Shown one piece after another: positions 1,154 through 16,377 of a DNA stretch of 64,000 nucleotides; within the stretch, counting starts at the first letter, position 1; each line of letters begins with the position of its first letter. The DNA is from Macrostomum lignano (Eukaryota), in the NCBI GenBank assembly GCA_002269645.1, contig NIVC01000038.1, forward strand, positions 1,116,001 through 1,180,000, written 5' to 3'. A program made the position numbers and the translations under genes. The notes under the pieces are model-generated. The model searched no databases. It saw only the letters and a list, made by a program, of their open reading frames with translations, and was not told the DNA's origin.

Positions 1154-4100
1154 ATGGCTAAACGCAGCGCAGCATCGACCACTTTCCTGGCTGACAAGAG
1201 GCAACGTTTTTATGGTAAGTTTTAATTAATTTCTGACATCAGTCTAGACGGGTTTTGAGTTGCTGCAGCAGGGAGCTTCTATGAATTGACAGGGACAGGA
1301 GCAAGAGGGGCTCGATAGAGAGTTGAAAAGAGCAGGTTAGACAGGCGGGGTTAACAAAGAGTTTAGGGGTTTGTCGCTGTGACAGCTTCAGGAGCATGCG
1401 GGAATTCAGAGTGCTGCGACAGGGGCTTACGAGTTTGAGTAGGGAAGGCGCGCAAACAAATAGCAGGCCGGATAACAGCTGCGGGCGGGGGTTAAAAAAT
1501 TGCAGAGCGTTTCAGCAGCAGGGTCTACGCGCAAGAGGTTATGTGGGAACACAAACAATGAGCCAGACCGGTAAAAAATGGTGGGCGCTCTGACAGCTGC
1601 AGGAGCATGCGGGAATTCAGAGTGCTGCGACAGGGGGCTTACGAGTTTGAGTAGGGAAGACGCGCAAACAAAGAACCAGGCTGGATGCGGGCTGGGGTTA
1701 AAAAATTGCAGACGCGTGTCGGGAGGAGGCATGAGTGCGAGGGGTTATGGGGGAGCGCAAACAAAGAACCAGGCTGGATGCGGCTAGGGTTAAAAAAAAT
1801 TGCAGAGCGTTTCAGCAGCAGGGCTTGTGCGGGAGGGGTAGCGCAAACAATGAGCCAGGCGGGATGCGGCTAGGGTTAAAAAAAATTGCAGAGCGTTTCA
1901 GCAGCAGGGCTTGTGCGGGAGGGGTAGCGCAAACAATGAGCCAGGCAAATGCGGCTGGGGTTAAAAAAATTGCAGACGCGTCTCGGCAGGGGGCATGCGT
2001 GCGAGGGGTTATGGGGGAGCGCTAACAAAGAGCCAGGCGGGATGCGGCTGGGGTTAAAAAAATTGCAGAGCGTGTCGGCGGGAGGGCCTGAGCGCAAGGG
2101 AGGAGCGTGAACAATGAGTCGGTTGGAGTCTGATCCTTGGGGTGCCACGAATTGACAGATTCTTCTGGTTTTTTATCTCCTTGTGTTTTTTCAGACGCGT
2201 TTGTCCCGCCAACACAGCCGGAATCTGTTACCGGACCGGGTGAGTTATCCAGCCCCCCATTCCCTAGACAGACCGGGCTGACTCACACCCCCATTCGTTC
2301 CATGCAGGTTTCACGGCCCGGCTGGATAATCAGCGCGACCTGCCCAAGTTTAGGGCAAAGGGTGTTGAATATGTTGTGAAGTTAGATGACACCGAAGATT
2401 TACGCGAGACATTTGCCAGTATGCTCGATGTCTTTAAGCAAGATTTGGCCGGCGAGGATTTCATGGCTGCGAAATTCGAGAGCGATAACATGCTCAAAGC
2501 GGCTCATACTCCCCCGGTGCGTGCAGCCCGCATGACAGCAGAGTTGTTGTTTAAGCACATTGACAAGATTGTGCAGTCGGATGCAACCGTATTAAGCAAC
2601 AACTTTTCTATCCGACTGCTAAAGGCCTGGGTGCCTCGAGGTGGTTGTGCCCTCGAGAACAAGCATCTAGAAGAGCGGCACGCCTTCTCCCGCCACTATG
2701 TCCGCATCAACAACACGGACAAGAGGTGCCTGCTGCGAGCGCTTGTTGTCGCATGCGCCTACCTGCAATTTGTGGCCAAGCGCATCACCGAGGATGTGTG
2801 GCGCAGGATCAAGACCAATTCGCCCAAGCAGACTAAGCTGGCGACTGAGCTGCAAGTCGAAGCAGGCCTCTACACGGTAAGTTGTGCACTAGTATCAGTA
2901 TCATGGAATACTAAAAGATATATTTTCTGATAAGAATTTTTACGCAGTATCATGGAATACTAAAAGAAATCTTACATAGTACCAGGGAATACTAAAAGAA
3001 TTTTTACACAGTATCATGGAATACTAAAAGATATATTTTCCGATAATATTTTTACATAGTATCAGGGAATACTAAAAGAAATATTTTACCCCCACACAGA
3101 CTCATCAAATCGTCTCGCAGGCTGGTCCTTTCGGGCTGGATGCACTGCCCGAAGCGATCTGTTCCCTGAACCGGCTGCATCCTGGCCACAACTTTGGTGT
3201 ACGCGTGTACCGGGCAGAGGAGGCCAACAGGTGCATCTTCAACCTGCCTGGCACCGAGATTCTGCACCTGCACCTGGTTGAACAGCACTTCAATGTGATC
3301 ACCAAGCTGCCTGCGTTTTTCGGCAGCCACCACTACTGTGCCAAGTGCGAGATGGCCTATGATAGCGACCCCGCCAAGCACAAGTGTGTGGATGCCTGTA
3401 GCACCTGCAAGACTCCGGGCTCTAACTGCAAGGTCAACCGCGCATATGTAAGATGCCAGGATTGCGGGCTAAACTGTTATAATGCTCAGTGCCTAGAGAA
3501 TCACAAGCGCAAGAATAAGGCGGGCAGATCTCGCTGTGATTCAGTCCACGTTTGCGGCACGTGCGGCTATCTAGAAGAACTAAAAGTAGGCCAAGCCCCC
3601 GAGCATCAGTGTGGTTACGCCAAGTGCCCAGTCTGCAAGCAGTACGACGAAACTGCCACCCACGAGTGCTTTGTCACCCCGCCCAAAGCCAAAGAGTCTA
3701 GCGCCCCGTAAGTTTACTATGATTTTGAGACGTACGTGGACTCGGGAAAGCAGCACCGGGTACACTTGGTTACGGCAGCTACCTCCTGCGAGGCGTGTCC
3801 CAAACTCTTCCCCAGGCCCCGCTGCGGCGCGTGCGGGGGACTACACAGCTCAGCCAATTGCATTGCGGGACGCGATTTGGCGCGCGATTTTACGAGCTGT
3901 GTGTCCCACAGCGACTGTGCCTGCGGGATGCGAGAGTTTGTATCCGTCGGGCCGCACTCTATAGACGCTTTTTACTGCTGGTTGACTACACTGTTCAAGC
4001 AGGGAGCTATTGCTATAGCGCACAATGGCTCTGCGTACGATGCATTCCTCCTGCTCGGCGCCCTACTCAATGGCCTGGCCAAGAAGAAGCCGCAGGTGAT

Positions 4101-5061
4101 TTTCCAAAACAGCCGCCTAATGTATATGAAGTGCGACAAGATCGCATTCAAGGACAGCCTCAACTTTATCCCTATTGGTCTGGCGCAATTCCCAAAGGCG
4201 CTTGGTTTGGGCACCCAACTGACCAAGGGAGATTTCCCGCACGTGTTTAATCAGCCAGAAAACTGGGGCTACGTGGGGCCCTACTGCTCAATTGAAATGT
4301 ACGGAGGCAAGAAAAACAAGCAGCACGACTCTATCACAGACTGGCTGGCCAAGCAGGAGGGTCGAGTGTTTGATTTCAATAAGGAGTACCTGGACTATTG
4401 CCTGCAGGACACGCTAATTTTGCGGGAAGGCTGTCTAAAGTACGCCCGCCTGATTAAGGACATTTGCGGACTGGACGCATTTGTTCAATCCAACACCATT
4501 GCGGGCTTGGCTATGGCAGTATTCACCACCAAGTTTATGGAGCCCAACACTCTTGGGGTGATTTCCCGCCGATCGGATGTACAGTCGCACAAGGCGCGGT
4601 GCTGGCTTGCACATTTGAATGCAACCGAGTTTGGCGGCAGGTTGAGGACAGCGGACTCGGGCGGCGAGGCTTTTGCCATGGGTCGTAAGGTGGACGGCTT
4701 CGACTCGGAGACTAGGACGGTGCTGCAGTTTCACGGCTGCTTCTTCCACGGTTGCCCAAAGTGCTTCCCCAATGGCGACGTGCTGCACCCGCTCAAGAAC
4801 CAGCCAATGCGGGCAATTTATGAAGAGACTGAGCGCTTCACTCGCCTGCTCTCTACCGCCTACAATGTGCGTGTCATGTGGGAGCACGACTATCAGGACG
4901 AGGGAGCGCCAGTCCAGCAGCCTATTCGCCTGGAGGATGCCCTGTTTGGCGGACGCACCGAGGCTTTTGTCCCGCACGCCGAGGCCACCGAGACTGTGCA
5001 GCTGCGCTATCGGGATGTGGTAAGTTTGTACACTTTTCAAAGTTTTTTCAAAATTTCTCAT

Positions 5062-5099
<38 letters not shown>

Positions 5100-6517
5100 G
5101 ACTTGTGTTTGAGTTTGGCCTACTTACCCCCCTAGGTGTCGCTCTACCCGACTGTCAACAAGTTTGACAAGTACCCCGTCGGGCATCCGGTTCACCACCC
5201 CGAGCCTCATCTACTGGATGAGCAGCAGCTGGCCCGGTATTTTGGCATCGCCGAGGTGTCAATTCTGCCGCCAACCAATCTCCACATTCCGCTACTGCCC
5301 GCCAAGATTAGCAAGAAGCTAGTTTTCGGCCTCTGCCGCGTCTGCATGGAGACCCAGTGCAGCAGCGAGTGTACACACACTGACGCTGAGAGAATGCTCC
5401 GCGGCACGTGGTCGACCCCAGAGCTCCACAAGGCCCTGCAGTTGGGTTACAAGCTGCAGTCAGTTCATGCCCTGGCCTATTGGACCAAGACTCGGACCGG
5501 GCTGTTTGCAGATTATGTAAACACCTTTTTAAAGCTCAAAGCCGAGTCTAGCGGTTCGCCGGGGATGACTGAGGACGCCAAGGCTGCCTACATGGCCAGC
5601 TTTTTTGAGCGCGAAGGCGTCCGGCTGGAAAAGGTGGAAGAAAATCCTGGCCTGCGCTTTGTTGCCAAGATTTTTCTAAACTCGTAAGTCTGGGTTTGAA
5701 CAGTGGGGACCGTGTTTTTCTACTTACAGTAGTAATACTAAATCTTTTTTTCCCTGCAGGCTCTGGGGCAAATTCTGCCAGCGGGATGACTTGACCTCCA
5801 CAGAGATTGTGGACAGTTACGAGGCGTGGCTGCAGCGCCTGACAGACCCGTCCATCAAAGTCAAGTCGTGCGAGCCAATAGGAGAGTGCTTCATGATGCT
5901 TGAATACAAGCCCCGAATTGGTGTTGCTGGCGAGCGGGCATTCAAGTACGCCAATGTACCTATTGGAGTTTTCACCACCTCCCATGCCCGGCTGCGACTC
6001 TACGAGGCTCTGGAGGGCCTAGGAACCCGCGTGATTTACGCCGATACTGATTCGTAAGTTTTTCACACTGTCTGTCTGTCTGCTTCGCTCCCCTAAACAC
6101 TTTATTCTCCTCCTCCTCCCCAGGGTCGTATACCGGTGCTCTCCGGGCGAGTACGAGCCTCCGGGCGGATCGAGTTTGGGGCAGTGGACTGACGAGGTAC
6201 CTGCCGGCTGCCGCATGGTACAGTTCACCACGGGAGGCCCCAAGCTCTATCGCTATGTGGTGGAGAAGCCCGACGGGTCGCTGTACTCGGTGCTCAAGTG
6301 CAAGAGCATCCGAGTCACGCCCGAGATTTCCGAGCGGGAGGCGGAGCTGCAGGAGATTCTGCGCCACGGCGGGACTGTACGGCTGCCCCAGGCACAGTTC
6401 AGGCGCGACAAGGCCAGCTGTACAATTCGGACCCTGGAGATGGATAAGACATTCCAGCGCGTCATGACTAAGCGAGTGTATGGGTCTGGCAGCCGCCCGT
6501 TTGGCTTTCGGGAGTGA
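1154..6517 (+). CDS. polB: Polinton/Maverick-type protein-primed family B DNA polymerase, 7 exons, with one in-frame TAA at 3709-3711 (this copy may be a pseudogene)
   Basis: Exons 1154-1214, 2195-2239, 2308-2876, 3100-5019, 5136-5683, 5760-6053 and 6124-6517 total 3831 nt (1276 codons plus stop). All six GT-AG junctions are phase-compatible. Motifs: D-x-x-C (NNTDKRCLLRAL) and HFNVI, a Cys/His zinc array, Exo I YYDFET, Exo II AHNGSAYD, Exo III YCLQD, Vsr-like QFHGCFFHGCPKC, LFGGRTE, Pol A RDV/VSLYP, Pol B KIFLNS/LWGKF, Pol C YADTDS/VV, C-terminal KR...PFGF. Confidence 0.93.
1365..2110. repeat. about 87-91 bp G-rich tandem repeat inside pPolB intron 1 (1215-2194)
   Basis: GGGTTAAAAAAATTGCAGAGCG...GCGCAAACAA...GCCAGG...ATGCGGCT recurs at about 1490, 1696, 1787, 1873, 1958 and 2051. 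Confidence 0.9.
2890..3085. repeat. about 39-40 bp tandem repeat (AGTATCATGGAATACTAAAAGA...) filling pPolB intron 3 (2877-3099)
   Basis: About five copies read directly. Confidence 0.9.
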
Positions 6518-6829
6518 TAAGGCCATACGCCTCCCTTGACTGAGATTCCCCTGTCTGTGCGGCACTTGGGATAATAAAACCTATTTGGAAGCTCCCCTGG
6601 GGAGAATTCTCTTTGTATGCGGTCTGCTACCTCCACTGTACATTGGGGCGGTTCTGTTACTCCTCTCTGCCCGCACTGTACTCCGCTAAGGATCCCCCGG
6701 CCCTGGGGAGGAATTGAATTTCTCTATGTTACTCCGCCTGCACTGTACATTGGGATCCCCCGGCCCTGGGGAGGAATGCGGGGGCGTGTCTCTTTACTAG
6801 GAAGCCGGATATTTTACTTTGCACCTATA

Positions 6830-7310
6830 AGCTTAATTTTGCATACATATGTTGTATTATACTTAACTTCCAGTGTGTGTATTTTATCCTATGCATTGAA
6901 ATTTGTGCCTGCGGTTAATATGCAAAATGTAATGTTTAAAATCTGCCTACATTATATGCTATGTAATTTTCCTGTATTATACTCAATTTGCACCTACAGT
7001 GTATGTATGCACCTGCATAATTGAAATCGAGAGTGCGTATGTGTATTTCCACCTATGTTTAATTTTCCTGCAGTATACTTGAATCTGCCTACTACACTAA
7101 TATGTACCCGCTTTGTATTTTGCCTGTTTTACCGTCTGCCAATATAACGATAATATCATTATGTATACCTAAGTTTGTACACCTATATGCATTATGCACC
7201 AATATGTACATTTTAATATGCACCTGCATTATACCTATGCGCCTACCATGTATTTTTTATACTTTTTATGTAAATATACGCAATTTCACCTACTATAAGT
7301 AGTTTTCGTA
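6830..7310. repeat. AT-rich degenerate repeat block, copy A (paralogous to 9290-9835)
   Basis: Shares the 45-bp block ACTTTTTATGTAAATATACGCAATTTCACCTACTATAAGTAGTTTTC (7261-7307) and TGTACCCGCTTTGTATT with the copy at 9290-9835. Confidence 0.8.
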
Positions 7311-7339
7311 ATTTTGTGTGTTAATATCGCTGACTATAC

Positions 7340-7775
7340 GTATCGGTGTACACCTGTATTGGGCGAGTGTACACCTGTATTGGGTGAGTGTACACCTGGC
7401 GCCTGTGGTTGGGAGGGTCTACATATCTGGAGGGTGAGCCTGCGGCTCGGGAGGGTCGCCTCCAGCTGCGCCTGCGGCATACATATCGGTAGGGTGTACT
7501 TATCGGGAGGGTCTACATATCGGGAGGGTCTACATATCGGGAGGGTCTACATATCGGGAGGGCCGCCTGCGGCATACATATCGGGGGAGGGCGCCTGCGG
7601 CATGGGCGCCTGCGGCATGGGCGCCTGCGGCATGGGCGCCTGCGGCATGGGCGCCTGATTGGCGCGCCTGGATGGCGCTTGGCGCCACGCGCCTGCGGCG
7701 CGCGCGCGCCGAGCGCCAGCCAATGAGAGGCGAGGAGGGTTGACACCCACCCCACCTCCAAAAACGCCCGGATAC
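7340..7775. repeat. GC-rich modular repeat A (GTGTACACCT / CATATCGGGAGGG / GGCGCCTGCGGCAT units)
   Basis: Short tandem units, closely similar to 9860-10200 and 12555-12995. Confidence 0.9.
7700..7775 (+). promoter_or_regulatory. CCAAT-box plus GC-box-like module, duplicated at 12925-12995
   Basis: GCGCCAGCCAATGAGAGGCG(A/G)GG(A/T)GGGTTGACACCCACCCCACCTCCAAAAACGCCCGGATA is nearly identical in both copies. Function is inferred from motif resemblance only. Confidence 0.35.
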
Positions 7776-8423
7776 GGGTTCATATAGTAGTGCGGTTGAA
7801 CTTTCGAATTTCCGCCGGCGTTGTGGTCGCACATATAAATCCGGAAGTATCGCAGACGAATCACAACGAAATTCTTTCTCCTTGTTTTACTCCGACTGCC
7901 GGGGTCCTCAAATTCCGGGGGAGGGTAGTCATAATCGTCGTGCGGTCGTACAAATGGTAGACGCCGAAGATTCTGACACCGAAAATTAATTCGTCGATTT
8001 GTTGAGCTGATTACTTCCAGTAGGGTAGAGCTGCCACCACCGTAATTTAAGTATTACGGAACGAATAAGTCACAGAGATTTCTTTGAGATGAGAACTTTG
8101 GTTGTTTTATGCCCCACGGGCAAATAACGATCAAGATAGGCTATGGCTCGGGTTAATTGTTAATGAAGAAGGAATTATTGTCTTGGTGCTGATATTATTA
8201 TTATTATTATTATTAAGAAATCAAAGCAGCAGGCTAAACGTTATTAGGTTACTTATTGACGAAAGAGTTGCGGGTGCCGAGGTACGAGGCTAAGCTTAAA
8301 AGTCAAATGCTAGTCAATAAGTAATGAGCTAGATAATTAACGAGTAGGCAAAATAAATGACGTAAATGAGCGAAGAAAAGTGGAGAAGGAACGAGGAAGC
8401 AGAGCATTGAAGACATTACATGT

Positions 8424-8603
8424 ACATGTACACAAATTTACGCAAATGTACACACACACACACACACACACACACGCACGCACACGCGTATCCTGCAGCG
8501 CATCCTGCAGCGCAGCAAGGCAGGGAGCTCTTGCTGTGAATACGCGTGTGCATGCGTGTGTGTGTGTGTGTGTGTGTACATTTGCGTAAATTTGTGTACA
8601 TGT
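8424..8603. repeat. long inverted repeat / MITE-like foldback (arms 8424-8491 and 8540-8603)
   Basis: ACATGTACACAAATTTACGCAAATGTAC(AC)n...CACACGCGTAT pairs with ATACGCGTGTG...(GT)nACATTTGCGTAAATTTGTGTACATGT. Confidence 0.9.
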
Positions 8604-9289
8604 GGTCCTATATACAGGAAACTGTGTACATTTATGTGTACAATTATGTCTATGCGCTACGTTGTGTGTAGTTCGTTGACCTGCGTTTGTAAATACAGTT
8701 TATACAGTTTAGCCCGTGCACCGCATTGATGCCTACTTTTGTGCTGAGATACCTGCTTTTTATTAAATACGCTGCACCAAAAGCAAATTTTGTTGGTGCA
8801 TACTGTGTTTTTGTAGAGGTGGAGGCATGCTTTTTAATACATATGTCTTTAGTGTAATTGGGTGTGCTTCAACTTGGCTCGCGAATCTTGCACTATGGCT
8901 CTCTAGTGGAAAGTACTCTTACTTGTGCTGGTTGTGGGTGAATGTGGGGCTTTCTGCTTGACTTATTTAGTTTACTTGATGGTTAAATGAGGAGTGGGAG
9001 ATGACGCGCCTACCTCAGGGAGGAATGCAGCTCCGCGGTCTGATGCAGCGCTTTCTGTTACCCCTCTCCATCCGCACTGTACTTGGTCTCCGCTAGGGAT
9101 CTCCCCTTGGGATTAAGAGTGGGCGGGCCCTTTGTACTCGACCCTGGGTTAAAAACTCGCATTTGGAGGCTCTGGAGAGTTGCAGTGGGGTTCAACAAAT
9201 GTCTGATAAGATCTCTTGTGAGGGCGTGATACTCGTCTCGAAATAAAAAAAAACCTGAACAAGTGTTGGATGCCCTTACTAGTTGGCGG

Positions 9290-9835
9290 GTTGTTACCTC
9301 TACAATTGTGCATTATTTCTGTCAATATTTTCCCCTGCATTATGTCAATATGTGCTACAGTGTGTCATAATATGATATTTTTATGCACTAATATGTATCA
9401 TAATTTTCCTGCATTATGCTTGCTTCTGCCTCTACGATGTGTGTATTTTAGCCTATACACCTACATAATTTGAATCTACAGTGTGTGCATATGCACCTGC
9501 ATTATACTTGTATCTACTCTGTTTATGTGTATTTCAACCTATGTTTTACATTATACTAGCATCTGCAAGCGCCTACTCCACTAATAAAGCGATATGTACC
9601 CGCTTTGTATTACGATTTTGTCTATTTCACCTACTTTTCTGTCAATATATCGATAAAATGCATCTATATTGTGTGTTTTTTGTTGCTCATATGCTTAATT
9701 CTATATGTCTGTACACCTATATGCATCGTAATATGCATTATGCACCGATATTTACACCTACTGATATGTTTAATATGCGTTTTGCTTACTTTTTATGTAA
9801 ATATACGCAATTTCACCTACTATAAGTAGTTTTCA
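9290..9835. repeat. AT-rich degenerate repeat block, copy B
   Basis: Paralogous to 6830-7310; the conserved 45-bp block is at about 9788-9834. Confidence 0.8.
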
Positions 9836-9859
9836 CTAGCCTAATTTTGTGTTAATATC

Positions 9860-10200
9860 GTTGGTTACATATCGGTGTACACATACATATCGGGAGAGTG
9901 TACACTCATATTGGGAGAGTGTACACACATATTGAGAGAGTGTACACTCATATCGGGGAGTGTACACACATATTGAGAGAGTGTACCTTCAGTTCGGGAG
10001 GGGGCGCCTGCGGGATACATTTCGGGGGCCCGGACCGCGCTTGGCACCTGTGGCTCGCGCGCCATATGGTAGGGTGTACATGTCGGGTACATGTCGGGAG
10101 GGGCGCCTGCTGCATACATGTCGGTGTACATATCGGGAGGGTGTGCCTGCTGCATACAGGTCGGGAGGGTTGCCTGCGTCATACATGTCGGGGCGCCTGG
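9860..10200. repeat. GC-rich modular repeat B
   Basis: Same CATATCGGGAG / GAGTGTACAC / GGCGCCTGC units as repeats A and C. Confidence 0.85.
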
Positions 10201-11389
10201 ACTGGGCTCGAGTGTTGTACTCTTTGTATGAATGCATTCTTGGTGTGTAACTCCAGACCATCCCTTCCCTCCAGGAGCACTGCAAGTAGACTGGTATGGT
10301 TTGGTATTCGAGGTTGGCGCGTGTACGTAATATACTCTTTGTAATATTTACCTGACCTGGGTTTGTAAGGTTTAATAACATATAAATGACTACTGCTGAC
10401 TAGTTGGCGCATCTGGATGGTGTGATAATAACTAACGTATCGAGATTTCGAGAGAAATCCTAGCATAATACTGTCTGTCCGGCATGTGGAAAAGTATTTG
10501 CCCCACCTTCGCTTACTCATACTGCACACAGACAAAGCTTATCTCTTTTAGTAAACTGTTCGTGGTGGTTTAGAAGGAGACGATGGTCTTCCTGTATATA
10601 CCTCTCTATCCCTTCTTCGCTCGTAATAACTTCATAAATGCTCGCTTGACCAATGGCTGGTACTGAACTAATAATTCATACGATACATAATGCCTAATAC
10701 TTTCTAACTCCGTACAGCTCACAAGTTTCTACTCTCTACTCTATCAGTAACATTAAAATAAAAAAGGTAAAATTTGCTGGTTTTGTGCCTAGTTTACTTA
10801 CTTTTCTATGTAGTTTCTAGCTCGTATGTAGTTTGCTTACTTGAAAATGTCTGCTTTTTATTCAAATTTATGTGGTTTGAAGGTTTATTTTTGCTAAAAT
10901 ACCTGGTTTCTTATAAAAATTTCTACTCTCGACAATGATTGTATCAGCTATTTCATTAAAATAACCTACTTTTTGAATAAAACGTTGTATTTAACCTCCT
11001 AGTTCTTTTTTCAAAACATAATGGAAACCCTCCCTACACCCTGGAACCTCCTCAAGCAGCTTACATAGAGCATGCAGACCCCGAAACCCCCTCTAGTGTG
11101 CCCTGATTTCAGCGGTCTAGCGGTTAACATCTGTATTTTTACACTATATTTTCCTTCATACAGCAATACAGGAGGGTTTGGAAGAGTGAGTCTGGCGGGG
11201 GAGGGGGCTTGTGGGATGATGAGGATGCGTACACACAGTTTAGCCTGTTTTAGCCTACCTTTTGGGCTAATATACTTACTATTATTACTACTAGGTACTA
11301 TGTACATACTATTATACTACCCACTATTAAATATGCTGCACTAAATCCAACTTTTGATAATACATAGCGTGTTTTGGTCGATTCTCCCT

Positions 11390-12420
11390 CACGTCTCTGT
11401 CCCTACACGTGCTCTGCCCGCTTTGGTCTCTGTTTGTGTACCTCTCTGTAACGTCTCTGTACGCTCAGACTGGTTTCTCCGTCCCCGCACGCGCCTCTAC
11501 TAAAGTTTGCTGTTACCTACCCCTACACACTGCTCTCTGTCTCCCTCCGCGCACACCTCACTGCCCTTGCATGCAACTTGCATGCCTTGCATGCCCTGTC
11601 CTGCCCTCGCGTGGGTCCCTGTCTATACATAGCTACTGGACCCTACCTCTCTGTGCCTTGCTCGCAACTCTGTCCCAGGCCCCCTTCACACTTCTCTGTC
11701 CCGGGCTGCAACTGGCTGACACGCGCCTCTCTGTTCCCCAGCCTGCGTGGCTGCCTACCCCTGCACACTGCTCTCTGTCCCCCCTCCTCTCTGCGCCTCT
11801 CTATCATCCTATTCCTGCAGCTGACCGTGCCGTTCAGCTCTGTCCACGCGCGGCTCCACCCCTGCCCGTGTCTCACTGTACACTGCCCCCCCCCCCTGCT
11901 GCATGGCTCCCTTGTGTGGCTCCCTTACCCAGCGCGTTTGCTCCCTATCTCCCTCCTGCTCCATATGTTTCTGTTCCCTCACACTACGCACGCGTGGCCA
12001 GCTCTCTGTCCATACACATCTCTGCTCCTCCACTCTATCCTCGCGTGGTCCCTTGACTGTTCGCATGCCCCTGCATACCCTGCCTGCCTCTCTGTCCCCT
12101 GCACTGGGGAGGGAGCTCTCTATCCTCTGTACGGCTCTCTCTGTGGGGTGTGTGTGACTCACACTACCTCTCTGTCCTAGCATGCGCCTCTCTATCCGGC
12201 TCCTGCAGCAGGCTGTGTTGTTCACATCTCTTTCCACCCACCCTCTGCCCGTACACGCTCACTGTACAGGGCTGCGTCAGCGTCGGGGTTAAAACTTCTC
12301 GCTCCCTATGCTTCAACAGTATAACAACCTAGTGGCTGGCTCTCTGTCCGCCCACCCCTCTGCCCGTACACGCTCACTGTACAGGGCTGCGTCAGCATCG
12401 GGGCTGAAACTTCCTATACC
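11390..12420. repeat. pyrimidine-rich degenerate repeat (CTCTCTGT-rich) ending in a duplicated ~62-bp unit
   Basis: Recurrent CTCTCTGT(C/A)C motifs. CACCCTCTGCCCGTACACGCTCACTGTACAGGGCTGCGTCAGC occurs at about 12239 and 12353. Confidence 0.75.
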
Positions 12421-12554
12421 CAACCGTGTAGTGGCCTAGTATGGGCGCGACCTGAGTTCGATTTCGCTAGTTGAGATGCGGGTGAGAGAGGGGAAGAGGC
12501 TAGGTGGGGGGCAGGGTGTGAGGTATAGGGGGCCTGCGGGGTACGTATCGTTGA

Positions 12555-12995
12555 CTACATATCGGGAGAGTGTACACCTGTATTGGGAGAGTGTACACCT
12601 GTATTGGGAGAGTGTACACCTGTATTGGGAGAGTGTACACCCGTACTGGGGAGAGTGTACCTTTGGCTCGGGAGAGTGTACACTCGGGGCGCCTGCGGCA
12701 TGGGCGTCTGCGGCATGGGGCGCCTGCGGCATGGGCGCCTGCTGCTCTGGAGGGTGGGCATACATATCGGGAGGGTGTACATATCGGGGTACATATCGGG
12801 AGGGTGCGCCTGCGGCATACATATCGGGAGGGTGGGCATACATATCGGGAGGGTGCGCCTGCGGCTGGTCGGCGCTTGGCGCCACGCGCCTGCGGCTGGT
12901 CGGCGTTTGGCGCCACGCGCCTGCGGCGCGCGCGCGCCAGCCAATGAGAGGCGGGGTGGGTTGACACCCACCCCACCTCCAAAAACGCCCGGATA
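12555..12995. repeat. GC-rich modular repeat C
   Basis: Closely parallels 7340-7775, including the terminal CCAAT module. Confidence 0.9.
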
Positions 12996-13208
12996 AATGC
13001 ACGTATAGTAGTCCCGCCTGAACGGACCCTGCAAGGTGAACAGCAGGACGTCCTGAACAGGTTGGGGGCAGTAGAACTCTGCCCGGATCACGTGGCCCCG
13101 CCAGTTGAAGTCGCCGCCGGCGCACGATGGTGGACGGGCTCGCTTATACATTGACAGACGGTTAAAGGACGCTGCTAGCGCCCCTGACCAGGCGGGCGGG
13201 TGTGTCTT

Positions 13209-14954: not shown

Positions 14955-15965
14955 TTAATTCAACGTCATATCATTCCTCTCTGGATCGATGGGAGCTACG
15001 CGTTGCCCGCTGCCAACCACATCAGGTTGGCCCAATTCTCCTCTGCGTGTAGGCATACACCGCAGTAGGGCCACGAACTCCCGGCGAAACATGCTGGACC
15101 TGCCCAGGTACACAAACAGGTTCACAGTGGAGCTGAGCATCTGAGGCAGGCGCATGAAGTTGCCGAAGCGCGAACGGTAATGCTTAGGCAGCTGGGCCAG
15201 ATAGAGGTACCCAATGCGAGACGCTACCTGGGTCAGGACCAGCAGTCCGGCAATAATGGCGATGGTGCCGGCGCTCTCGAGAAGCTCGCCAGTTCGACCG
15301 CCAATATCCGCATTGATCTTGACCAGGTGCAGCACGCGGAACAGACAGGCCAAACTGAGCCCCAAGGCCAAGCAGCTGTAGGTGATGGTCGATACCAGCA
15401 GCCAAATGTTGTAGGCGTTGCCATAGACACCAGAATTGGTGCACATCGGCGTCACATTGTCCAGCTGGTCGATAGACAGCGACAGAGCTATCACGGAGTC
15501 GGCACAGGTGTACAACCAACCGGCCAGGATCACCAGGGCTCCGCAGCGATGCGAGTACCCGATGTACTTCTGGGGCCGGAGCAGAACAGCGCACCTGTCG
15601 CAACACAACGCCAGAGTGAACACCGTCGAGGCTACCAGACCGAATGTCATTGGCACGATGTCGGTGAGGCATTGCAGTTCAGTTCTCAGGTTGCCCTGGC
15701 CAACGTAATAATCGTTGAGACGTCGGCCAGTGACGTACATGTAGGCTGCGCCAATCCATGCATCCGCAATGGCCAAATTCGCCATGACAATGTAGTAGAA
15801 GCGGCGTCGCAAAGTTTTCGACGCGAAACAGTTTAGCGCGATCAGAATGTTGCACAAGGCGCAGCCAGCAGCCGTAAAAAACTGGGAATAGCTGGCCGGT
15901 AGGTTCCATTCGTACAACTGGATGCTGTCGGAGCGCAGCTCTTCTAAAACATCAGATTCGTTCAT
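14955..15965 (-). CDS. intronless divergent class A (rhodopsin-like) GPCR, 336 aa
   Basis: Seven hydrophobic segments, TM2 NLAIAD, TM3 DRC (DRY-like), TM7 VNLFVY (NPxxY-like). Confidence 0.88.
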   Translation of the reverse strand: MNESDVLEELRSDSIQLYEWNLPASYSQFFTAAGCALCNILIALNCFASKTLRRRFYYIVMANLAIADAWIGAAYMYVTGRRLNDYYVGQGNLRTELQCLTDIVPMTFGLVASTVFTLALCCDRCAVLLRPQKYIGYSHRCGALVILAGWLYTCADSVIALSLSIDQLDNVTPMCTNSGVYGNAYNIWLLVSTITYSCLALGLSLACLFRVLHLVKINADIGGRTGELLESAGTIAIIAGLLVLTQVASRIGYLYLAQLPKHYRSRFGNFMRLPQMLSSTVNLFVYLGRSSMFRREFVALLRCMPTRRGELGQPDVVGSGQRVAPIDPERNDMTLN

Positions 15966-16377
15966 TGCTTTGATTTGAATCCGATCTCTTAGAGTATACT
16001 CTCAGCTTTTCTGGAATTTGTCTCGCTAAATCTCTTGGCGTTGCTTTTGCCTAATATTTATATAAAATCGGCGGAATCCTGCGGGAAAATCAGAATGATA
16101 TAAAATGCCGCAGGTGGCATTGGGAAAATGCGCGGTCCTCGATCGTTACATGAAATTCTGACTTGCTAATTAATTGCAGGGATTTTGCCATCCCCGCTTC
16201 CCAGGTGAATCTTATATAGCCTAGAATTTTCAGACATACGCATGAAGCCTGCCGTTGGGGCATCTGCCGTAATTAATTCATTCATTCCAAGACACCACAT
16301 AATGAATAAAAGCTTATTACGAGCTAGTATTTGTAGGAAACGATCGTCGCTACAAGCAAGTTAGTCTCCCACTAATT

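Follow-up and report, generated by a model that had tools for sequence, protein, structure and literature searches.

Polintons are described as elements of 15-20 kb that carry a polymerase and an integrase together (PMC5718144), and the intact vertebrate ones are intronless in the account of Barreat and Katzourakis (PMC8097293); for marine Polintons, a pPolB2 polymerase with a VSR insert has been described (Jeong et al., 10.1101/2023.08.22.554363). In the present study, we analysed a stretch of 64,000 nucleotides from Macrostomum lignano (assembly GCA_002269645.1, contig NIVC01000038.1, positions 1,116,001 to 1,180,000 of the forward strand), hereafter the window, which holds a gene for a protein-primed family B polymerase (pPolB) within a Polinton-like element. 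The gene is interrupted by six introns, three of them inside the catalytic motifs A, B and C, and the polymerase stands in its element without the usual partners. On comparison of sequences, we consider it likely that this polymerase element and a separately integrating integrase/capsid element are the two parts of one split Polinton. This split organisation is more surprising than the intron pattern, which is itself real and recurrent; the causes proposed for that pattern in an earlier model-made reading of the letters (the sequence-only reading) are unsupported.

The exons of the gene match PF03175, and a profile built from 28 homologues picks up phi29 polymerase (1xhx, E 7e-12) and E. coli Vsr (PDB 1vsr, E 1.5e-4), so that the gene is to be read as a pPolB2 with a VSR insert and the protein-primed family B polymerase expected of a Polinton is present. 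Searched with the window's own sequence, Pfam gave no support for the VSR-like insert, which is seen through the homologue profile only. Exon 5 returned 128 matches from the genome, the full-length ones among them falling into family 1 (45 matches, 94-100% identity) and family 2 (26 matches, 67-71%); 46 loci were compared in 10 kb stretches, 40 of them being scored for introns, with the distant intronless locus L050 left aside. Ten family-1 copies with both flanks measure 8.7-9.8 kb, end in ACTACTA...TAGTAGT and bear inverted repeats of up to 1.35 kb, and a 6-bp target duplication is visible in nine of the ten. The VSR-like insert of the pPolB, the terminal inverted repeats and the 6-bp duplication are all reminiscent of Polinton/Maverick elements (Eupolintoviridae). 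When 37 polymerase or palindrome loci were searched with the proteins of the capsid element described below (including rve integrase, capsid, ATPase and protease), no match was found.

In the window, the right terminal inverted repeat of the polymerase element spans positions 6604 to 7791 (inner edge approximate; placed by contigs and by copy and end comparison), and the first 23 nt from the terminus at 7791 are identical to both ends of the capsid/integrase element on C110. The left terminal repeat is missing here, and the long exon of this copy contains a premature in-frame stop at 3709-3711 (plus strand); among 46 other loci none has the stop, 36 have a sense codon and 10 are not assessable. 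Judged by its frame and ends, the window copy of the element is broken, which the sequence-only reading overlooked together with the polymerase-only content of the element. A micro-intron at GTAAGT near 3707 was considered and rejected, as the site is read through in other copies and spanned by unbroken contigs. All scored exons are open in 16 of the 46 loci, dN/dS is 0.064 across ten family-1 copies of the long exon, and the polymerase is, by this measure, under purifying selection. The same genome holds a pPolB2 relative that is decayed and AT-rich and lacks introns at A, B and C (L050, G000:C234) and at least three more intronless pPolB families (L086-L095), with frames of 1,000-1,480 codons and some with an ATPase and other Polinton genes. 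Family 2 had likewise been considered as an intronless sister with 867-residue open frames, an idea that was rejected because its intron A is merely in frame.

The partner element was reached by searching with a Polinton capsid protein. Its copy on C251 is 10,856 bp long, is flanked by a 6-bp duplication and carries, tightly packed, an ATPase, a protease, major and minor capsid-like proteins, an rve integrase (34.5 bits) and small conserved frames; the capsid has a double-jelly-roll-like look-alike (score 0.98) and the protease a Peptidase_C5 look-alike (0.97). A PDB sequence search with the protease found no match, and a single-sequence fold of the capsid protein was uninformative (pLDDT 34). 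No pPolB match was found in three copies of the capsid element, one whole and two nearly whole. The capsid has 20 matches in the genome at 98-100% (family 1) and 26 at 84-86% (family 2); pairs of terminal motifs number 19 (median 10,524 bp, 18 of them around a capsid match) and 26 (median 10,147 bp, 22 around one). Near the left end of one capsid/integrase copy there is also a Fic-domain frame (L147:238-1041, 52.6 bits). Polymerase elements lie beside or within capsid-like genes of other families on G000:C4072 and C2932, and C106, tried as a helper element, was rejected, being another Polinton nested in a palindrome (L140-L142, G000:C106).

The two kinds of element are tied to each other by their ends. 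With search patterns that fixed only ACTAC, the ends of capsid family 1 read ACTACTA in 46 of 46 cases, as in polymerase family 1, and 62 of 67 ends of capsid family 2 read ACTACGTA, in agreement with polymerase family 2, whose right ends, found through an independent anchor, read TACGTAGT in 15 of 15. An exact 23-mer is held in common with the cognate capsid family by 12 of 30 family-1 and 5 of 14 family-2 polymerase-locus ends, and by none crosswise. The two polymerase families thus pair with the two capsid families by their ends. When the exon-5 and capsid match lists were compared, no partner capsid was found within 40 kb of a spliced polymerase; the parts integrate separately, with 6-bp duplications, their termini are matched by family and their gene sets are complementary. 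Parts that share their termini and complement each other in gene content are what a segmented virus would be expected to present. We consider it likely that the two parts cooperate: the host spliceosome would make the polymerase mRNA, the spliced polymerase would prime replication of both elements at their common ends, and the partner would supply integrase and capsid and so move both; non-coding palindromes would ride along, and a packaging class of 9-10.5 kb would explain the element sizes. We infer this co-replication and packaging from the common terminal 23-mers and the size classes.

Several points weigh against such a union. The cooperation of the two elements is read from sequence; the content of the capsid element comes from one complete and two nearly complete copies, and the family-2 polymerase elements were read at their right ends. 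Furthermore, the subterminal motif of capsid family 2 is that of polymerase family 1, so that the ends are mosaic, and the other intronless pPolB families of the genome could serve in trans. The two could accordingly be unrelated defective Polinton derivatives, each aided by complete Polintons elsewhere in the genome, a view that draws on the existence of several intronless pPolB families and other capsid families and on the two element types never being found together. We think this unlikely, because it leaves aside the exactly complementary gene sets, the family-matched ends with their common 23-mers, the existence of two parallel pairs, the tight size classes and the apparent purifying selection on the polymerase, all of which speak for one Polinton in two parts.

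Beside the polymerase element, positions 8500 to 13012 of the window form one arm of a non-coding palindromic element of about 9 kb with family-1 termini (terminus 13012, inner edge approximate; from repeat and end comparison). Such palindromes (in addition, L106-L111 and L113-L117) are non-coding, near-perfect and 6.7-9.3 kb long with arms of about 4.4 kb; they carry family-1 termini and 6-bp duplications, have at least 40 arm matches in the genome and resemble snap-back satellites. One further element of the same size class (L112, G000:C558:43420-53410; 9,885 bp) has family-1 termini around a tandem retrotransposon-like pair that replaces the polymerase. Within the termini, positions 8-25 are hypervariable, being composed of short modules that reappear in different element types, and often a single copy has matching ends, which suggests terminal exchange during replication.

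The polymerase frame of the window comprises 1,276 positions over seven exons, all on the plus strand. Splice joints were taken from contigs of four public runs at 90% likeness, whose RNA status is guessed and which may stem from any copy of the family. Exon 1 (1154-1214, with the ATG at 1154; supported by sequence and frame check) is joined to exon 2 (2195-2239, 45 nt; frame check) across intron 0 (1215-2194, 980 nt, phase 1, repeat-filled), then follow intron 1 (2240-2307, 68 nt, phase 1), exon 3 (2308-2876) and intron 2 (2877-3099, 223 nt, phase 0). These three introns all lie in the variable N-terminus, with contig joints in three, two and one of the four runs, respectively; copy comparison bears on them too, the position of intron 2 being common to both families and the donors of introns 0 and 1 having been spotted by eye in just one copy of family 2. 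The N-terminal region in exon 3 would correspond, by eye from the layout given in PMC11161782, to a terminal-protein part plus the Cys half of a vOTU-like domain. Exon 4 (3100-5019, 1,920 nt) holds the Cys-rich region, the exonuclease and the VSR-like insert up to motif A (PF03175, and 1vsr by the homologue profile), and contigs run through it without a break, just as the sequence-only reading had supposed this long exon to be free of introns.

The same reading had placed three introns inside motifs A, B and C, and here it was right: the junctions are exact, and contigs skip all three. Intron A (5020-5135, 116 nt, phase 0, GT..AG) yields the joint RDV|VSLYP, intron B (5684-5759, 76 nt, phase 2, GT..AG) splits the Ser codon TC|G in N-S-L-W-G-K, and intron C (6054-6123, 70 nt, phase 2, GT..AG) splits the Ser codon TC|G in D-T-D-S; contigs are joined across A in three of the four runs and across B and C in all four. 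Between them lie exon 5 (5136-5683, motif A to motif B) and exon 6 (5760-6053, motif B to motif C), both matching PF03175, and exon 7 (6124-6517) leads to the stop codon, exons 6 and 7 being backed by contig joints and copy comparison. Low-depth contigs do enter introns B and C (depth 6.7 and 6.0 vs joint depths of 114.6 and 79.1); such contigs may stem from DNA or from pre-mRNA, and their depth says little about level. Having GT-AG ends, a pyrimidine tract and removal in presumed RNA, introns A, B and C are ordinary host-type spliceosomal introns in a pPolB gene. Among the assessable loci of families 1 and 2 they are never missing (A in 37/37, B in 39/39, C in 38/38), and their interiors and lengths vary freely between copies. 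In family 2, 7 of the 13 copies assessed have an intron A of 81 or 87 nt that keeps the frame and contains no stop. An origin of intron A by tandem duplication, considered because it starts with V-S-L-Y like the next exon, was rejected, since V-S is what every phase-0 GTRAGT donor encodes, the sequence beyond it differs in other copies and no AG precedes the donor.

Two mechanisms had been offered for these introns by the sequence-only reading, and neither fares well. One derived them from inteins or similar motif-targeting elements. PolB inteins do occupy the same three motifs, at three conserved sites that lie near one another in the active site, and the pol-c site is given as YGD|TDS (PMC549080). 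Intron C lies 8 nt downstream of that site. With pol-a and pol-b at what we take to be their sites, intron A lies 3 nt upstream of the former and intron B 2 nt downstream of the latter, and the comparison of codon offsets (-3, +2, +8 nt) thus gave no exact match. The motif introns are moreover short (53-121 nt) and GT-AG, are removed at the RNA level (in presumed RNA) and have no match in Rfam, so that nothing of a group I or II ribozyme core was found; when all six introns were compared with one another, no similarity appeared. No in-frame insert with splicing motifs directly before Cys, Ser or Thr was found at pol-a, pol-b or pol-c, nor any intein or homing-nuclease Pfam domain in the homologue lists examined, including 16 proteins. 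Inteins are in-frame protein inserts, and we know of no route from them to spliceosomal introns. Literal descent from inteins or from group I/II introns at allelic sites is therefore extremely improbable.

The other mechanism was a splicing-dependent lock, by which tissue-specific retention would silence the polymerase outside the germline. It is correct that a retained intron B or C halts translation after one codon, at an immediate TAA, and the low-depth contigs that extend into both could be taken in its favour. This truncation is nevertheless nothing special to the motifs, for all six introns, the three N-terminal ones included, truncate the frame of this copy within 1-46 codons, and the TAA at B and C is a by-product of the donor: a phase-2 intron that starts with GTAA puts TAA in frame, just as TAA or TGA is automatic for any phase-2 GTRA donor. 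The stop-free, in-frame intron A of seven family-2 copies and the drift of interiors and lengths speak against a lock as well, although a retained intron A of this kind would probably still inactivate motif A. Nor would a lock require a position inside a motif. We regard it as very unlikely; the motif introns would not act as a switch.

The placement itself departs from chance. In a conservation profile of 76 homologues (11-residue span, 1,276 positions), introns A, B and C rank within the top 2.5%, 0.3% and 5.6%, respectively, and mark three of the four highest conservation peaks, while introns 0, 1 and 2 rank at 94%, 94% and 64%. Fisher's combined p for the six introns is 0.011, and the probability of at least three of six at that level is 0.003, with a threshold set post hoc. 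Proto-splice-type sites are not enriched in conserved spans (1.5-6.0% vs 5.5%), and introns B and C, reading TC|G, have no G preceding the donor. The enrichment anticipated by the sequence-only reading is thus borne out in so far as the placement is non-random and beats both uniform and proto-splice nulls (p about 0.003, post hoc), on six introns only; proto-splice frequency alone does not explain the positions in the pPolB gene.

The pattern also recurs in other pPolB lineages, where introns were deduced at the protein level from the ends of open reading frames (ORFs) rather than from DNA. Among 254 proteins with a profile match, 130 reach the C-terminus and 19 stop exactly at the motif-B Ser, 13 of these ending in L-N-R, as AG|GTA would read; over the following 198 positions there are 43 ends, one 443-member cluster having been counted once by hand. 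The queries were bounded by the A/B/C junctions, so that upstream positions are under-sampled, and uninterrupted rows may be spliced annotations. One of the proteins ending at motif B is a RefSeq entry of a mealybug, and another of them (P0251) keeps a pyrimidine-rich stretch followed by the out-of-frame continuation. In other frames, introns would lie at nearby sites: at motif B in phase 1 of the Ser (P0093) and at the Gly of WGK (P0120 cluster), at motif A at the Lys before YVDFTSLYP (P0267) and in the codon after Ser (P0093, P0301), and at motif C at the Asp of DTD (P0122). In a quick IQ-TREE tree of 201 rows, the motif-B trait needs 12 changes, at least seven of them forced by starred branches; with a midpoint root, a history of gains only takes 13 events, and a single origin takes 34 losses. 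Both Macrostomum families form one clade with two environmental frames bounded by A and B, and the sister P0092 (support 98), whose source may be DNA or RNA, reads through the three motifs. Scans at the DNA level covered one metagenome locus and 0, 0 and 21 viral loci, and found no interruption at A, B or C where checked; in uninterrupted genomic pPolB2 loci the motif-B Ser is AGY in six of seven, a natural AG| context. A complete marine Polinton (L118:4550-4670) shows an apparent GT-AG intron in the VSR motif of its pPolB (FYG|..|CVYHG) and no interruption of motifs A, B and C. Overall, motif-centred introns appear to recur across animal pPolBs.

As to why the introns sit in the motifs, we somewhat tentatively favour persistence over nuclease-primed gain: a polymerase segment with spare room would tolerate introns and long repeats, and those introns that land in invariant catalytic motifs would persist, since only base-exact loss would be viable there, with a recurrent insertion hot spot at motif B adding to the effect. 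The study PMC2814812 found that spliceosomal introns do not favour conserved sites, and it notes that the survival of introns there would by itself suffice to produce such a bias. Yet persistence does not explain the three introns in the least conserved region, the variable N-terminus, nor why nine of twelve conservation peaks are free of introns, the exonuclease peak and the highest of all (FGGRT) among them; ends also accumulate much more at motif B than at conserved sites further downstream, and the introns of other lineages are read from ORF ends. Chance combined with sequence bias would involve a few gains, an AG| context at an N-S(AGY) motif B and the selection of a striking case. The small number of introns, the post hoc test, the AGY serines of the uninterrupted loci and the 13 ends in L-N-R agree with it, and one ancestral intron with many losses is conceivable (34 losses vs 13 gains). 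We judge it improbable, as the TC|G context of B and C in this gene lacks the G before the donor and conserved spans are not richer in proto-splice sites.

A slightly better case, though still a doubtful one, can be made for gain primed by a nuclease: a cut at a conserved motif is repaired with filler that becomes an intron, the target is destroyed and the protein is unchanged, so that the element becomes immune. The cut could come from an intein, from a free-standing homing nuclease or from the VSR/HNH insert of a competing Polinton. The three offsets fall within a recognition site of 12-40 bp (PMC2814812), the introns of other lineages lie at nearby yet different positions, the tree forces at least seven changes at the motif-B site, and Bathycoccus PRP8, with an intron and an intein at one codon, offers a precedent (PMC3749507). 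However, no intein or homing-nuclease domain occurs among the Pfam annotations of the homologues, including the 16 proteins, the VSR insert is not known to have a target specificity, and any process linked to conservation would pick out A, B and C simply as the sites where conservation is highest. The widest version, a segmented integrating double-stranded DNA virus of an animal in the 9-10.5 kb class, with palindrome satellites and with motif introns gained repeatedly as nuclease-target immunity, would seem to us unlikely. Returning to persistence, we place moderate confidence in the whole explanation, that is, spliceosomal introns in the pPolB of a two-part Polinton of which the motif introns have persisted.

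Elsewhere in the window, positions 1-520 hold a 23-nt tandem array, and the same flank stands beside a near-identical copy on C271 in the opposite arrangement, which suggests a duplicated locus with inversion. A 348-codon frame on the minus strand (14955-16001) looks, by eye, like a single-exon seven-transmembrane receptor.

Set against known systems, the introns find only partial counterparts. PolB inteins at pol-a, pol-b and pol-c of archaea and giant viruses (PMC549080, PMC2814812) lie in the same catalytic motifs, but are in-frame inserts spliced from the protein at fixed sites, whereas the pPolB introns are spliced from RNA and offset from those sites. PRP8 of Bathycoccus (PMC3749507) likewise has a spliceosomal intron at an intein-type site, for which intein-primed gain was proposed; it is, however, a host gene with an actual intein allele, of which no counterpart turned up in the present material. 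In dinoflagellate Polinton-like viruses (PMC12166617), introners are spliceosomal introns within Polinton-type elements too, yet consist of repeated similar sequences, unlike the six pPolB introns, which are mutually unrelated as compared within the gene. The motif-centred introns are an exception to the no-preference finding published for spliceosomal introns (PMC2814812), and the recurrent motif-B position would allow parallel intron gains to be counted and tested in an animal that is cultured in the laboratory.

As for the elements, the partner shares with Polintons/Mavericks the rve integrase, the double jelly-roll capsid, the ATPase and the protease. The differences are that these four genes stand outside the polymerase element, in a partner that integrates separately; that each part is below 15-20 kb (8.7-9.8 kb, and medians of 10.5 and 10.1 kb), with a sum of about 19.5 kb that fits; that six introns are present, as against the intronless state described for intact vertebrate elements; and that the ends read ACTAC...GTAGT (ACTACTA or ACTACGTA) instead of (AGT)2//(ACT)2 or (AG)3//(CT)3, an AC-type end being reported for one fish Polinton family (PMC8097293). 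A literature search gave no report of a bipartite Polinton or of this element; subscription papers and repeat libraries (Repbase) lay outside it, so a prior description is possible. If the two-part reading is true, screens that accept only intact open frames, or only elements holding both polymerase and integrase, overlook whole families. Closest in organisation are the bidnaviruses, which are described as having a Polinton-derived pPolB and two segments with matching termini (Starrett et al., PMC8502044), their double jelly-roll capsid having been replaced (PMC11161782). The capsid here, in contrast, is jelly-roll-like, and neither the non-jelly-roll capsid nor the lack of an integrase that would mark a bidnavirus was found. 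Bidnavirids are single-stranded and are not known to carry an integrase, whereas both parts here integrate. A two-part Polinton, if true, would thus be a living model for the origin of segmentation in the lineage that gave rise to the bidnaviruses.

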